Notes: a model not told the origin generated them from the letters alone. DNA of 36,673 bases from Escherichia coli (GCF_003334315.1 NZ_QOWR01000049.1), one strand, 5' to 3'. Counted from the first letter of the stretch, positions 2,853-9,684 are shown. Translations and numbers: made by a program.

Positions 2853-4187
2853 ATGAGTTCTGCCAAGAAGATCGGGCTATTTGCCTGTACCGGTGTTGTT
2901 GCCGGTAATATGATGGGGAGCGGTATTGCATTATTACCTGCGAACCTAGCAAGTATCGGTGGTATTGCTATCTGGGGTTGGATTATCTCTATTATTGGTG
3001 CAATGTCGCTGGCGTATGTATATGCCCGACTGGCAACAAAAAACCCGCAACAAGGTGGCCCAATTGCTTATGCCGGAGAAATTTCCCCTGCATTTGGTTT
3101 TCAGACAGGTGTTCTTTATTACCATGCTAACTGGATTGGTAACCTGGCGATTGGTATTACCGCTGTATCTTATCTTTCCACCTTCTTCCCAGTATTAAAT
3201 GATCCTGTTCCGGCGGGTATCGCCTGTATTGCTATCGTCTGGGTATTTACCTTTGTAAATATGCTCGGCGGTACTTGGGTAAGCCGTTTAACCACTATTG
3301 GTCTGGTGCTGGTTCTTATTCCTGTGGTGATGACTGCTATTGTTGGCTGGCATTGGTTTGATGCGGCAACTTATGCAGCTAACTGGAATACTGCGGATAC
3401 CACTGATGGTCATGCGATCATTAAAAGTATTCTGCTCTGCCTGTGGGCCTTCGTGGGTGTTGAATCCGCAGCTGTAAGTACTGGTATGGTTAAAAACCCG
3501 AAACGTACCGTTCCGCTGGCAACCATGCTGGGTACTGGTTTAGCAGGTATTGTTTACATCGCTGCGACTCAGGTGCTTTCCGGTATGTATCCGTCTTCTG
3601 TAATGGCGGCTTCCGGTGCTCCGTTTGCAATCAGTGCTTCAACTATCCTCGGTAACTGGGCTGCGCCGCTGGTTTCTGCATTCACCGCCTTTGCGTGCCT
3701 GACTTCTCTGGGCTCCTGGATGATGTTGGTAGGCCAGGCAGGTGTACGTGCCGCTAACGACGGTAACTTCCCGAAAGTTTATGGTGAAGTCGACAGCAAC
3801 GGTATTCCGAAAAAAGGTCTGCTGCTGGCTGCAGTGAAAATGACTGCCCTGATGATCCTTATCACTCTGATGAACTCTGCCGGTGGTAAAGCATCTGACC
3901 TGTTCGGTGAACTGACCGGTATCGCAGTACTGCTGACTATGCTGCCGTATTTCTACTCTTGCGTTGACCTGATTCGTTTTGAAGGCGTTAACATCCGCAA
4001 CTTTGTCAGCCTGATCTGCTCTGTACTGGGTTGCGTGTTCTGCTTCATCGCGCTGATGGGCGCAAGCTCCTTCGAGCTGGCAGGTACCTTCATCGTCAGC
4101 CTGATTATCCTGATGTTCTACGCTCGCAAAATGCACGAGCGCCAGAGCCACTCAATGGATAACCACACCGCGTCTAACGCACATTAA
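2853..4187 (+). CDS. cadB: CadB lysine:cadaverine antiporter (APC superfamily)
   Basis: 444 aa polytopic membrane protein recognised as CadB; paralogous to AdiC at 25853-27190. Confidence 0.95.
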   Translation: MSSAKKIGLFACTGVVAGNMMGSGIALLPANLASIGGIAIWGWIISIIGAMSLAYVYARLATKNPQQGGPIAYAGEISPAFGFQTGVLYYHANWIGNLAIGITAVSYLSTFFPVLNDPVPAGIACIAIVWVFTFVNMLGGTWVSRLTTIGLVLVLIPVVMTAIVGWHWFDAATYAANWNTADTTDGHAIIKSILLCLWAFVGVESAAVSTGMVKNPKRTVPLATMLGTGLAGIVYIAATQVLSGMYPSSVMAASGAPFAISASTILGNWAAPLVSAFTAFACLTSLGSWMMLVGQAGVRAANDGNFPKVYGEVDSNGIPKKGLLLAAVKMTALMILITLMNSAGGKASDLFGELTGIAVLLTMLPYFYSCVDLIRFEGVNIRNFVSLICSVLGCVFCFIALMGASSFELAGTFIVSLIILMFYARKMHERQSHSMDNHTASNAH

Positions 4188-4266: not shown

Positions 4267-6414
4267 ATGAACGTTATTGCAATATTGAATCACATGGGGG
4301 TTTATTTTAAAGAAGAACCCATCCGTGAACTTCATCGCGCGCTTGAACGTCTGAACTTCCAGATTGTTTACCCGAACGACCGTGACGACTTATTAAAACT
4401 GATCGAAAACAATGCGCGTCTGTGCGGCGTTATTTTTGACTGGGATAAATATAATCTCGAGCTGTGCGAAGAAATTAGCAAAATGAACGAGAACCTGCCG
4501 TTGTACGCGTTCGCTAATACGTATTCCACTCTCGATGTAAGCCTGAATGACCTGCGTTTACAGATTAGCTTCTTTGAATATGCGCTGGGTGCTGCTGAAG
4601 ATATTGCTAATAAGATCAAGCAGACCACTGACGAATATATCAACACTATTCTGCCTCCGCTGACTAAAGCACTGTTTAAATATGTTCGTGAAGGTAAATA
4701 TACTTTCTGTACTCCTGGTCACATGGGCGGTACTGCATTCCAGAAAAGCCCGGTAGGTAGCCTGTTCTATGATTTCTTTGGTCCGAATACCATGAAATCT
4801 GATATTTCCATTTCAGTATCTGAACTGGGTTCTCTGCTGGATCACAGTGGTCCACACAAAGAAGCAGAACAGTATATCGCTCGCGTCTTTAACGCAGACC
4901 GCAGCTACATGGTGACCAACGGTACTTCCACTGCGAACAAAATTGTTGGTATGTACTCTGCTCCAGCAGGCAGCACCATTCTGATTGACCGTAACTGCCA
5001 CAAATCGCTGACCCACCTGATGATGATGAGCGATGTTACGCCAATCTATTTCCGCCCGACCCGTAACGCTTACGGTATTCTTGGTGGTATCCCACAGAGT
5101 GAATTCCAGCACGCTACCATTGCTAAGCGCGTGAAAGAAACACCAAACGCAACCTGGCCGGTACATGCTGTAATTACCAACTCTACCTATGATGGTCTGC
5201 TGTACAACACCGACTTCATCAAGAAAACACTGGATGTGAAATCCATCCACTTTGACTCCGCGTGGGTGCCTTACACCAACTTCTCACCGATTTACGAAGG
5301 TAAATGCGGTATGAGCGGTGGCCGTGTAGAAGGGAAAGTGATTTACGAAACCCAGTCCACTCACAAACTGCTGGCGGCGTTCTCTCAGGCTTCCATGATC
5401 CACGTTAAAGGTGACGTAAACGAAGAAACCTTTAACGAAGCCTACATGATGCACACCACCACTTCTCCGCACTACGGTATCGTGGCGTCCACTGAAACCG
5501 CTGCGGCGATGATGAAAGGCAATGCAGGTAAGCGTCTGATCAACGGTTCCATTGAACGTGCGATCAAATTCCGTAAAGAGATCAAACGTCTGAGAACGGA
5601 ATCTGATGGCTGGTTCTTTGATGTTTGGCAGCCGGATCATATCGATACGACTGAATGCTGGCCGCTGCGTTCTGACAGCACCTGGCACGGCTTCAAAAAC
5701 ATCGATAACGAGCACATGTATCTTGACCCGATCAAAGTCACCCTGCTGACTCCGGGGATGGAAAAAGACGGCACCATGAGCGACTTTGGTATTCCGGCCA
5801 GCATCGTGGCGAAATACCTCGACGAACATGGCATCGTTGTTGAGAAAACCGGTCCGTATAACCTGCTGTTCCTGTTCAGCATCGGTATCGATAAGACCAA
5901 AGCACTGAGCCTGCTGCGTGCTCTGACTGACTTCAAACGTGCGTTCGACCTGAACCTGCGTGTGAAAAACATGCTGCCGTCTCTGTATCGTGAAGATCCT
6001 GAATTCTATGAAAACATGCGTATTCAGGAACTGGCTCAAAATATCCACAAACTGATTGTTCACCACAATCTGCCGGATCTGATGTATCGCGCATTTGAAG
6101 TGCTGCCGACGATGGTAATGACTCCGTATGCTGCGTTCCAGAAAGAGCTGCACGGTATGACCGAAGAAGTTTACCTCGACGAAATGGTAGGTCGTATTAA
6201 CGCCAATATGATCCTTCCGTATCCGCCGGGAGTTCCTCTGGTAATGCCGGGTGAAATGATCACCGAAGAAAGCCGTCCGGTTCTGGAGTTCCTGCAGATG
6301 CTGTGTGAAATCGGCGCTCACTATCCGGGCTTTGAAACCGATATTCACGGTGCATACCGTCAGGCTGATGGCCGCTATACCGTTAAGGTATTGAAAGAAG
6401 AAAGCAAAAAATAA
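4267..6414 (+). CDS. cadA: CadA inducible lysine decarboxylase (PLP-dependent, fold type I)
   Basis: 715 aa from MNVIAILNHMGVYF...; the ORF-track start at 4228 is an upstream in-frame extension; internal ATG at 4267 has GGAG spaced upstream; ends ...VKVLKEESKK. Confidence 0.95.
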   Translation: MNVIAILNHMGVYFKEEPIRELHRALERLNFQIVYPNDRDDLLKLIENNARLCGVIFDWDKYNLELCEEISKMNENLPLYAFANTYSTLDVSLNDLRLQISFFEYALGAAEDIANKIKQTTDEYINTILPPLTKALFKYVREGKYTFCTPGHMGGTAFQKSPVGSLFYDFFGPNTMKSDISISVSELGSLLDHSGPHKEAEQYIARVFNADRSYMVTNGTSTANKIVGMYSAPAGSTILIDRNCHKSLTHLMMMSDVTPIYFRPTRNAYGILGGIPQSEFQHATIAKRVKETPNATWPVHAVITNSTYDGLLYNTDFIKKTLDVKSIHFDSAWVPYTNFSPIYEGKCGMSGGRVEGKVIYETQSTHKLLAAFSQASMIHVKGDVNEETFNEAYMMHTTTSPHYGIVASTETAAAMMKGNAGKRLINGSIERAIKFRKEIKRLRTESDGWFFDVWQPDHIDTTECWPLRSDSTWHGFKNIDNEHMYLDPIKVTLLTPGMEKDGTMSDFGIPASIVAKYLDEHGIVVEKTGPYNLLFLFSIGIDKTKALSLLRALTDFKRAFDLNLRVKNMLPSLYREDPEFYENMRIQELAQNIHKLIVHHNLPDLMYRAFEVLPTMVMTPYAAFQKELHGMTEEVYLDEMVGRINANMILPYPPGVPLVMPGEMITEESRPVLEFLQMLCEIGAHYPGFETDIHGAYRQADGRYTVKVLKEESKK

Positions 6415-6427
6415 TTAGCTCGTACAA

Positions 6428-6455
6428 GGGAAGTGGCTTGCCACTTCCCTTTTTT
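6428..6455 (+). terminator. cadBA intrinsic terminator
   Basis: gggaagtgg-cttg-ccacttccc followed by TTTTTT, 14 nt after the cadA stop. Confidence 0.8.
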
Positions 6456-6472
6456 GCTCATAAGGAGAACAC

Positions 6473-7930
6473 ATGAAAACACCCTCACAGCCGCGCGCGA
6501 TATACTATATCGTGGCGATCCAAATCTGGGAGTACTTCAGTTTTTACGGCATGCGTGCCTTACTCATTCTCTATCTCACCCATCAGCTTGGTTTTGATGA
6601 TAACCATGCCATCAGCCTGTTCAGCGCATATGCTTCTCTGGTTTACGTTACCCCTATTCTCGGCGGCTGGCTTGCCGACCGCCTGCTCGGCAACCGCACT
6701 GCAGTGATTGCCGGCGCGCTGTTAATGACCCTTGGCCATGTGGTGCTGGGTATTGATACAAATTCAACCTTTAGCCTGTATCTGGCGCTGGCAATCATTA
6801 TTTGTGGCTACGGTTTATTCAAATCAAACATCAGCTGTTTGCTTGGCGAGCTCTACGACGAGAACGATCATCGACGTGATGGCGGTTTTTCGCTGCTGTA
6901 TGCTGCGGGCAATATCGGTTCTATCGCCGCCCCAATCGCCTGCGGCCTGGCTGCTCAGTGGTATGGATGGCATGTTGGCTTTGCCCTTGCGGGTGGCGGC
7001 ATGTTTATCGGTTTGTTGATTTTCTTAAGCGGGCATCGTCATTTCCAGTCCACGCGTAGTATGGATAAAAAAGCGCTCACTAGCGTGAAATTTGCCTTAC
7101 CGGTATGGAGCTGGTTAGTGGTGATGCTCTGTTTAGCCCCAGTATTTTTTACCCTGCTGCTGGAGAACGACTGGTCCGGATATTTGCTGGCGATCGTTTG
7201 CCTCATTGCCGCACAAATCATTGCCCGCATGATGGTCAAATTCCCCGAACACCGCCGTGCTCTTTGGCAAATTGTATTGTTGATGTTTGTCGGGACATTG
7301 TTCTGGGTACTGGCACAACAGGGCGGCAGTACCATCAGCTTGTTTATCGATCGCTTTGTGAATCGTCAGGCATTCAATATTGAAGTACCTACAGCACTAT
7401 TCCAGTCGGTGAATGCAATTGCGGTGATGCTCGCTGGGGTTGTACTGGCCTGGCTGGCGTCGCCAGAAAGCCGCGGCAACTCAACATTGCGCGTCTGGCT
7501 GAAGTTTGCCTTTGGCTTACTGCTGATGGCTTGTGGCTTTATGTTGTTGGCATTTGATGCCCGACATGCAGCGGCTGACGGTCAAGCGTCAATGGGCGTG
7601 ATGATATCCGGGTTGGCGCTAATGGGCTTTGCCGAACTCTTTATTGACCCGGTGGCGATTGCGCAAATCACGCGTCTGAAAATGTCTGGCGTATTAACCG
7701 GGATTTATATGCTGGCAACAGGCGCGGTCGCCAACTGGCTGGCAGGCGTAGTGGCACAGCAGACGACAGAGTCGCAAATTAGCGGTATGGCAATTGCAGC
7801 TTACCAGCGATTCTTTTCTCAGATGGGAGAGTGGACGTTGGCTTGTGTCGCGATCATCGTCGTATTGGCCTTTGCTACCCGTTTTCTGTTTAGCACGCCG
7901 ACGAATATGATACAGGAGAGTAACGATTAA
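6473..7930 (+). CDS. dtpC: DtpC (YjdL) proton-dependent di/tripeptide permease, POT/PTR2 family
   Basis: 485 aa polytopic membrane protein recognised as YjdL/DtpC; AAGGAG SD upstream. Confidence 0.9.
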
Positions 7931-8166
7931 CTGTCGTAAAAACAATTGGTTATGAATAAATTAACTTTCAGTTTATCACACTAGTAAATCGAGATTAATA
8001 AGTCATTTAAACCATTTTGATGGTTATTTATTAGTGATATCAACTTGAGGTAAGCGTTAGTTTCGATAAGATAAACTGAGTTATTAATAGTCGAGGCAGA
8101 TAATACAGTGTACCGATCTGTCTCTTTATCTACGCTAAATTGAAAGCTGGATTTAGAGGAACCAAA

Positions 8167-9684
8167 ATGTCTGAACAAGAAACACGGGGAGCCAATGAGG
8201 CTATTGATTTTAACGATGAACTGAGAAATCGCCGCGAAAAACTGGCGGCACTACGTCAGCAAGGTGTGGCGTTTCCCAATGATTTTCGCCGCGACCATAC
8301 CTCTGACCAGTTGCACGAAGAGTTTGATGCGAAGGATAACCAGGAACTGGAATCCTTAAACATTGAAGTCTCGGTTGCTGGCCGAATGATGACCCGTCGT
8401 ATCATGGGGAAAGCCTCCTTTGTAACGTTGCAGGATGTCGGTGGCCGTATTCAACTGTACGTTGCACGAGATAGCCTGCCAGAAGGTGTTTATAACGATC
8501 AGTTTAAAAAATGGGATCTGGGTGACATTATCGGTGCCCGCGGTACGCTGTTTAAGACGCAAACGGGTGAGCTTTCCATTCACTGTACTGAGCTGCGCCT
8601 GCTGACTAAAGCACTACGTCCTTTACCAGATAAATTCCATGGTCTGCAGGATCAGGAAGTCCGTTATCGTCAACGTTATCTGGACCTCATCGCTAACGAT
8701 AAATCCCGTCAAACGTTTGTTGTCCGTTCAAAAATTCTGGCCGCTATCCGTCAATTCATGGTCGCGCGCGGCTTTATGGAAGTAGAAACCCCGATGATGC
8801 AGGTAATTCCAGGTGGGGCATCTGCTCGCCCGTTTATTACCCATCATAATGCTCTGGATTTAGATATGTATCTGCGTATCGCGCCGGAGCTGTATCTGAA
8901 ACGTCTGGTTGTAGGCGGTTTTGAACGGGTATTCGAAATCAACCGTAACTTCCGTAATGAAGGTATTTCTGTTCGCCATAATCCTGAGTTCACAATGATG
9001 GAACTCTACATGGCGTATGCGGATTACCACGATTTGATTGAACTGACAGAGTCACTGTTCCGCACCCTGGCACAAGAGGTTCTGGGTACCACTAAAGTCA
9101 CTTATGGCGAGCATGTGTTTGATTTCGGCAAACCGTTTGAAAAACTCACCATGCGCGAAGCAATCAAAAAATATCGTCCAGAAACCGATATGGCCGACCT
9201 GGATAATTTTGATGCTGCTAAAGCATTAGCTGAATCTATCGGTATTACGGTAGAGAAAAGCTGGGGGTTGGGACGTATTGTCACAGAGATCTTTGATGAA
9301 GTGGCAGAAGCACATCTGATTCAGCCAACCTTTATTACGGAATATCCGGCAGAAGTGTCCCCGCTGGCACGCCGTAATGATGTTAACCCGGAAATCACCG
9401 ACCGTTTTGAATTCTTCATCGGTGGTCGTGAAATCGGTAATGGTTTTAGCGAATTAAACGACGCAGAAGATCAGGCTGAACGTTTCCAGGAACAGGTTAA
9501 TGCTAAAGCTGCAGGTGACGACGAAGCCATGTTCTATGACGAAGATTACGTGACTGCGCTGGAATATGGTCTGCCGCCAACCGCTGGTCTGGGTATTGGT
9601 ATCGACCGAATGATTATGCTGTTTACTAACAGCCATACTATTCGCGACGTTATTCTCTTCCCGGCGATGCGCCCACAGAAATAA
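8167..9684 (+). CDS. lysU: LysU, inducible lysyl-tRNA synthetase (class II)
   Basis: 505 aa from [40 protein letters not shown] (the LysU-type N-terminus); the ORF-track start at 8140 is an upstream extension. Confidence 0.93.

Follow-up and report, generated by a model that had tools for sequence, protein, structure and literature searches.

Partial intrinsic terminators inside operons are known from rplKAJL-rpoBC, where one lies between rplL and rpoB, and from rpsU-dnaG-rpoD, where one lies between rpsU and dnaG. The cadBA operon, which is activated by CadC and induced by low pH together with lysine, is usually called bicistronic. We analysed a stretch of Escherichia coli DNA of 36,673 nucleotides (nt) (GCF_003334315.1, NZ_QOWR01000049.1; this whole stretch is called the window below, and all positions are counted from its first letter) that carries cadB and cadA and, directly downstream of them, the peptide transporter gene dtpC. 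Our subject is the junction between cadA and dtpC. We consider it likely that a cadB-cadA-dtpC unit lies behind the CadC-dependent cad promoter, with cadB and cadA as its first cistrons and dtpC as a third, distal one that is strongly damped.

In the arrangement that we propose, the CadC-dependent promoter upstream of cadB would give rise to the cadB-cadA message, and RNA polymerase moving past cadA would meet an intrinsic terminator that lies 11 nt beyond the stop codon; about 97-99% of transcripts would end here, 11-40 nt past cadA. The remaining 1-3% would read through and expose a Shine-Dalgarno (S-D) sequence 7 nt after the U-run, from which DtpC could be translated. DtpC would be made only under strong induction of the Cad system, at ~1/30 to 1/100 of the CadA message level, and a faint cad-independent dtpC background of about 5 reads per kilobase per million (rpkm) would stand alongside the read-through. 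We infer that the transcript is continuous over the cadA-dtpC junction and that it depends on CadC and the cad promoter.

A conserved terminator between cadA and dtpC

Positions 5900-8400 of the window are E. coli chromosome, with 100% identity to many complete genomes, and the gene names used here are those in the annotation of 100% identical E. coli chromosomes. The genes cadC, cadB, cadA, dtpC and lysU all lie on the + strand. The features that bear on the junction are as follows.

949-2487, + strand: cadC, which encodes the membrane-bound protein that activates the cadBA promoter (annotation of identical DNA from E. coli)
2853-4187, + strand: cadB, the lysine/cadaverine antiporter, first cistron of the acid-induced transcript (annotation)
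4267-6414, + strand: cadA, the inducible lysine decarboxylase, with its stop codon TAA at 6412-6414 (annotation and sequence)
6332-6360, + strand: a sigma-70-like site within cadA, TTGAAA, a 17-nt spacer and TACCGT, with a predicted start at ~6367 (matrix scan)
6426-6455, + strand: the intrinsic terminator of cadBA, with an 11-base-pair (bp) stem, a CUUG tetraloop and U6 at 6450-6455 (sequence, pattern scan and fold)
6462-6467, + strand: the dtpC S-D sequence AAGGAG, 5 nt ahead of the ATG (sequence)
6473-7930, + strand: dtpC (older name yjdL), with its ATG at 6473-6475 (annotation)

The cadA-dtpC intergenic region is 58 nt long, and 30 nt of it are terminator. Direct reading of the DNA places the terminator, the S-D sequence and the ATG where an earlier sequence-only reading of this stretch had put them; its junction coordinates were correct. 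From the last T to the ATG there are 17 nt. The core of the hairpin is GGGAAGTGG / CTTG / CCACTTCCC at 6428-6449, and A-T pairs extend the stem to 6426-6451. In the pattern scan the stem counted 11 pairs, including 6 G-C pairs, around a 4-nt loop, and a run of TTTTTT lies directly 3′ of the stem, at 6450-6455. Folding of the RNA gave -18.2 (centroid) to -20.2 kcal/mol, with z = -3.45, and none of 200 shuffled sequences was as stable.

Within E. coli, a 96-nt sequence spanning the junction was found in 5210 of 5426 complete genomes, with at least 99% identity in 5147. The junction (6395-6490) is missing from 216 of the 5426 genomes, about 4%, and 3 of the 5210 matches lie on records labelled plasmid.

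For the wider comparison we used DtpC as the query and took one genome per species, which yielded 54 loci from ~50 species and ~20 genera of Enterobacterales; the search patterns were derived from E. coli DtpC, and distant DtpC-like genes and cad operons that lack dtpC lie outside this sample. The order cadB-cadA-dtpC holds, from Escherichia to Serratia, in all 52 loci that have upstream sequence, the other two being cut at an edge. The spacer between cadA and dtpC is mostly 54-72 nt long across genera, and hairpin, T-run and S-D sequence are all kept. In all genera the distance from the cadA stop codon to the start of the hairpin is 5-12 nt; it is 11 nt in E. coli. Most Enterobacteriaceae have 5-7 T in the T-run, and Serratia has a weaker one, TTTTG or TTTG. 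The stretch from the T-run to the ATG is 17-31 nt long, and AAGGAG is its sole conserved motif.

All 42 distinct junction sequences from other genera form a hairpin of 9-13 bp with a stability of -14.6 to -24 kcal/mol, mostly closed by tetraloops of the CUUG or UUCG type. Base pairs were counted in a plain MAFFT alignment (A1). A covariance-model alignment (A2) was left unused, since the hairpin is palindromic and minus-strand matches had been mixed in. In the alignment of the 42 sequences 97.6% of cells are paired, as against 47-70% in slid controls, and 5 of the 11 stem pairs have compensatory changes on both sides (33 such cells). The covariation score was 0.317, compared with 0.156 in shuffled alignments, and was reached by none of 500 shuffles. 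We conclude that the junction structure is above chance and is held by compensatory changes. It has the marks of an intrinsic terminator, namely a stable GC-rich hairpin, an adjoining U-run and compensatory substitutions. The reverse complement of the hairpin is followed by TTGTACG, which is no T-run, and there is no convergent gene; we rejected a bidirectional terminator on these grounds. A scan of 5500-8400 against Rfam returned no match at the junction, and one chance match to a small nucleolar RNA at 7944-8017 (E = 0.56).

Some lineages have altered the junction. In three Pseudescherichia-like genomes (L026, L029 and L032; ~3907-4000, 5461-5490) the cadA hairpin and T-run are replaced by palindromes that resemble repetitive extragenic palindromic (REP) elements, and the same holds for one further Enterobacteriaceae genome (L017, 3876-4000). 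In the three Pseudescherichia-like genomes the dtpC stop codon is followed by 17 nt, including AAGGAG, and then by the lysU ATG, so that cadB-cadA-dtpC-lysU looks, from its sequence, like a four-gene operon. These natural variants point the same way as a functional link between cad and dtpC. Trabulsiella, Citrobacter, Pluralibacter, Buttiauxella and Superficieibacter likewise carry large GC-rich REP-like palindromes, inserted after the cadA terminator and ahead of dtpC; the REP-bearing spacers are 92-212 nt long (L009, L024, L048, L036, L035 and L033), and two of them, L035 and L036, have lost the T-run that follows the hairpin. In Kluyvera genomosp. 3 (L038, 795-5367) and Serratia rubidaea (L051, 1965-5406) both cadA and dtpC are apparently fragmented or frameshifted, which could be decay of the module or could be indel errors of long-read sequencing.

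The protein encoded by dtpC is conserved along with its position. DtpC is an atypical proton-coupled peptide transporter with a preference for dipeptides, above all those that end in lysine or arginine; D392 together with the substitution R21Y has been proposed to determine this specificity (PMC3478282, PMC9309889). The DtpC of the window and all 50 full-length orthologues have D392 and have Y21 in place of the canonical Arg; all 50 orthologues also keep Y25, Y58, K117, W278 and A281, and cadA adjoins dtpC for every one of them. These structural and transport papers mention neither the cad genes nor the regulation or physiological role of DtpC (PMC3478282, PMC9309889). A permease for dipeptides ending in lysine (X-Lys) that is on only when lysine decarboxylase is strongly induced would be a reasonable extra route of lysine supply, and the purpose of DtpC may be to import X-Lys dipeptides as an additional source of lysine for CadA.

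Expression of dtpC and the origin of its transcripts

The cad genes and dtpC respond together to acid in two independent published datasets. The first comprises RNA sequencing (RNA-seq) and ribosome profiling (Ribo-seq) by Schumacher et al. 2023 (PMC10746267, Tables S3 and S5), of which we re-analysed the published values from nine samples and give the mean at each pH. At pH 4.4, 5.8 and 7.6, respectively, RNA levels were 1469, 311 and 3.6 rpkm for cadB, 2322, 534 and 3.3 rpkm for cadA, and 79, 11 and 4.8 rpkm for dtpC; the Ribo-seq values were 2176, 460 and 2.5 rpkm for cadA and 133, 9.3 and 5.9 rpkm for dtpC (PMC10746267). Thus, dtpC rose 16-fold in RNA and 22.5-fold in Ribo-seq at pH 4.4, and it is translated, with a translation efficiency of 0.9-1.7 (~1.7 at pH 4.4). 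Across the nine samples dtpC RNA followed cadA RNA with a Pearson r of 0.977 and a slope of 0.033, and at each pH the replicate richest in cadA RNA was also the richest in dtpC RNA (PMC10746267). The second dataset is the microarray time course after an acid shift by Kannan et al. 2008 (PMC2270276, Table 1), in which the log2 ratios at 5 and 10 min were 3.1 and 4.7 for cadB, 1.2 and 3.2 for cadA, and 1.2 and 2.6 for yjdL, none of the three recovering. Neither paper comments on dtpC (PMC10746267, PMC2270276). Their shared response to acid supports the co-regulation at which the sequence-only reading had hinted.

From cadA to dtpC the RNA-seq signal falls roughly 30-100-fold, which supports termination indirectly. 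After subtraction of the baseline, the ratio of dtpC to cadA RNA was 3.2% at pH 4.4 and 1.2% at pH 5.8; provided that the two messages decay at similar rates, this is what a terminator of 97-99% efficiency is expected to leave. The cadB-cadA-dtpC set has several properties of a single transcription unit: the genes share a strand, the gap between cadA and dtpC is short and promoter-less, distal expression tracks proximal expression, and the order is conserved in 52 of 52 loci.

Some of the published data weigh against dtpC being simply a third cad cistron fed by a constant leak. Between pH 5.8 and pH 4.4 dtpC RNA rose 7.2-fold and cadA RNA 4.3-fold, or ~12-fold and 4.4-fold after baseline subtraction, and this steeper rise requires a second acid-dependent input, a change in read-through or terminator efficiency, or a change in mRNA stability. 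At pH 7.6 dtpC (4.8 rpkm) was not below cadA (3.3 rpkm), which indicates some cad-independent transcription of dtpC, about 5 rpkm. A fixed leak accounts for neither the steep rise nor the level at pH 7.6. Moreover, ratios of steady-state mRNA mirror decay rates as well as termination, and yjdL was 2.0-fold up upon induction of sigma-E (PMC2731931).

A variant of the proposed arrangement would make the cadA terminator a graded valve, with read-through that grows with cadA translation and with the severity of the acid stress, and DtpC a conserved but so far unrecognised third component of Cad acid resistance; we regard this stronger version as unlikely. Proximity of a stop codon can affect intrinsic terminators. 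Throughout the genera sampled, the cadA stop codon is near enough to the hairpin for such interference to be conceivable: a ribosome that ends translation of cadA could cover part of the 5′ arm and hinder folding. Read-through would then increase from 1.2% at pH 5.8 to 3.2% at pH 4.4, and DtpC would bring in X-Lys dipeptides as a second lysine supply when free lysine is short.

We looked for promoters that could serve dtpC independently of the cad promoter. The pattern scan found no sigma-70-like site on the + strand of 5400-6473, and a scan for sites with a -10 element between 6430 and 6468, using a sigma-70 matrix approximated from textbook consensus frequencies, found none save one match at the 99.6th percentile. 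Neither scan revealed a sigma-70 promoter between the terminator and the ATG that would leave the S-D sequence transcribed. With the scans empty, and with the S-D sequence alone conserved across genera, the claim of the sequence-only reading that there is no room for a conventional dtpC promoter after the terminator stands. It had further offered read-through or a promoter in the 3′ end of cadA as the two possible sources of dtpC expression. Read-through fits the evidence; however, the two are not true alternatives, because transcripts from a promoter within cadA meet the same terminator. Any RNA with its start upstream of 6426 carries the hairpin and the U-run in full, and read-through is still required. 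Escape from the terminator is possible only for a start within or after the hairpin, and nothing there is promoter-like.

The possibility that dtpC has its own acid-responsive promoter within cadA, for example at 6332-6360, so that its co-induction with cadBA would reflect parallel regulation and not co-transcription, has several points in its favour. With the approximate matrix, the site TTGAAA-17-TACCGT lies at the 99.995th percentile of the window; dtpC shows cad-independent basal expression at pH 7.6 and a steeper increase than cadA from pH 5.8 to pH 4.4; and yjdL is in the list of genes induced by sigma-E. However, such transcripts would be cut by the same factor at the full terminator, and during induction the flux at the terminator would consist mostly of transcripts from the cad promoter. 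Nor is the motif specifically conserved. The conserved residues F-E-T and A-Y-R dictate its bases, and at synonymous positions there is free variation: TTC stands in place of TTT in most species, and TAC alternates with TAT and CGT with CGC. Synonymous diversity over the last 70 codons of cadA is 0.42-0.62, which is normal for the gene (median 0.53, 5th percentile 0.39). Given this diversity and the free synonymous positions, nothing points to selection for a promoter within cadA, and we ruled out a conserved promoter in the cadA 3′ end, as there is no dip in diversity and the motif is explained by the amino acids. A sigma-E promoter for dtpC, suggested by the induction list, was likewise rejected, since no match to the motif GAAC-N17-20-TCNAA was found near the cadA 3′ end or the dtpC junction. 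We conclude that a promoter of this kind is quite unlikely to explain the acid response of dtpC, and that the site at 6332-6360 is a candidate weak source of the basal dtpC signal, as a non-conserved element.

A second alternative is that the terminator insulates dtpC, that the acid signal of dtpC is non-adaptive leakage, and that the adjacency is a historical accident without a functional link to Cad. Consistent with this, a stable tetraloop hairpin and a run of six U make for a strong terminator; dtpC RNA does not exceed about 80 rpkm; a dtpA dtpB dtpC triple mutant colonised mice normally (PMC10936423); and the structural and transport papers on DtpC that we consulted are silent on any cad link. 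Set against these points are the synteny at all 52 informative loci from Escherichia to Serratia, the retention of the S-D sequence and of an intact open reading frame with D392 and Y21 invariant in 50 orthologues, and the efficient translation of the leaked message (~1.7 at pH 4.4). In some lineages the terminator has been removed altogether, and the preference of DtpC for X-Lys dipeptides fits the substrate of CadA. We therefore think it very doubtful that the arrangement is an accident. Finally, a start within the hairpin or shortly after it (6429-6472), which would bypass the terminator and perhaps give a leaderless message or one with a very short leader, has next to no probability. In its favour is the weak gap match TTGCCA(6438)-17-TAAGGA(6461), which lies at the 99.6th percentile only, fits the -10 consensus at 2 of 6 positions, is absent from the output of the consensus scan and predicts a start at ~6473, at the ATG itself, in conflict with the conserved S-D sequence. 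AAGGAG is the sole conserved motif of an otherwise unconserved gap, which implies that it is transcribed.

lysU and other neighbours of the cad genes

Downstream of dtpC the window continues with two features.

7931-8166, + strand: the dtpC-lysU spacer, AT-rich, with a weak AU hairpin at 8010-8025 and then ATTTATT
8167-9684, + strand: lysU, the inducible lysyl-tRNA synthetase, a lineage-specific neighbour (annotation)

The RefSeq pipeline PGAP labels 8167-9684 as lysS; its position beside dtpC and cadA identifies it as the inducible paralogue lysU. LysU is acid-inducible and less cadaverine-sensitive, according to work that PMC5078493 cites. The spacer in E. coli is 236 nt of AT-rich sequence, and the scan of 7931-8166 found no canonical terminator in it, only the weak AU-rich hairpin; transcripts that reach dtpC might continue into lysU. 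In the sampled loci lysU lies downstream of dtpC in only about 21, from Escherichia, Klebsiella/Raoultella, Buttiauxella and Pseudescherichia. The idea of a lysine-themed cluster of cadBA, dtpC and lysU consequently holds in part: the linkage of cadBA to dtpC is universal in the sampled loci, whereas lysU is a lineage-specific member, lies beyond a 236-nt spacer and has been noted by others.

Several further observations concern the surroundings of the junction. The lowest synonymous diversity in cadA, 0.28 against a median of 0.53 among 48 species, occurs at ~5845-5901 and 5935-5988 (codons 527-545 and 557-574) and may reflect codon bias, RNA structure or an embedded element. Directly upstream of cadC, positions 257-689 hold a tRNA-Phe gene and then a tyrosine recombinase fragment with a frameshift, an arrangement that looks like the scar of an element that had integrated at the tRNA site. 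The arginine decarboxylase acid-resistance genes adiA, adiY and adiC lie at 22364-27191, ~16 kb from cadBA, so that two inducible decarboxylase systems, cad and adi, are near neighbours within the window.

Comparison with known systems

Our literature search found no explicit link between cadA and dtpC, or between cadBA and yjdL. A cadBA-dtpC unit, or a start site for dtpC, may already be entered in curated E. coli databases. What is new with respect to the searched literature is the proposal of dtpC as a damped third cad gene, with a linkage that is universal in the sampled Enterobacterales that carry DtpC and that coincides with invariance of the putative lysine-selecting residues. Leaky terminators inside operons are a textbook mechanism; the link of cadBA to dtpC is conserved and little noticed. 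The evidence most likely places DtpC under the acid- and lysine-responsive cad promoter, and it raises the question of whether CadA, under acid stress, is supplied with lysine-containing peptides by DtpC. The result matters, too, for quantitative models of the Cad system and for strains for cadaverine production, in which cadBA is treated as a two-gene unit; such strains usually retain the native 3′ end of cadA.

Like the rplL-rpoB and rpsU-dnaG junctions, the cadA-dtpC junction has a hairpin and U-run between co-oriented cistrons, in a gap without a promoter for the distal gene, and the distal gene follows the regulation of the proximal one at a small fixed fraction. It would differ from them in the extent of read-through, which is lower, about 1-3% as judged from mRNA ratios. 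The cadBA operon is taken to end at the cadA terminator in PMC2270276, for example, and the evidence presented here extends the unit, in damped form, to dtpC. With regard to the atypical POT/SLC15 transporters DtpC and DtpD, the protein of the window is DtpC itself, to which the gene context adds a suggested regulation and role. A further likeness is to decarboxylase clusters with an attached aminoacyl-tRNA-synthetase-like gene, such as the tyramine cluster of Enterococcus, whose tyrS is induced at acid pH (PMC3315439). As in such clusters, the synthetase gene for the decarboxylated amino acid, here lysU for lysine, stands beside decarboxylase and antiporter genes. The position of tyrS, however, is upstream, and tyrosine regulates it; lysU is found downstream, beyond a spacer of 236 nt, and is a neighbour in some genera only.

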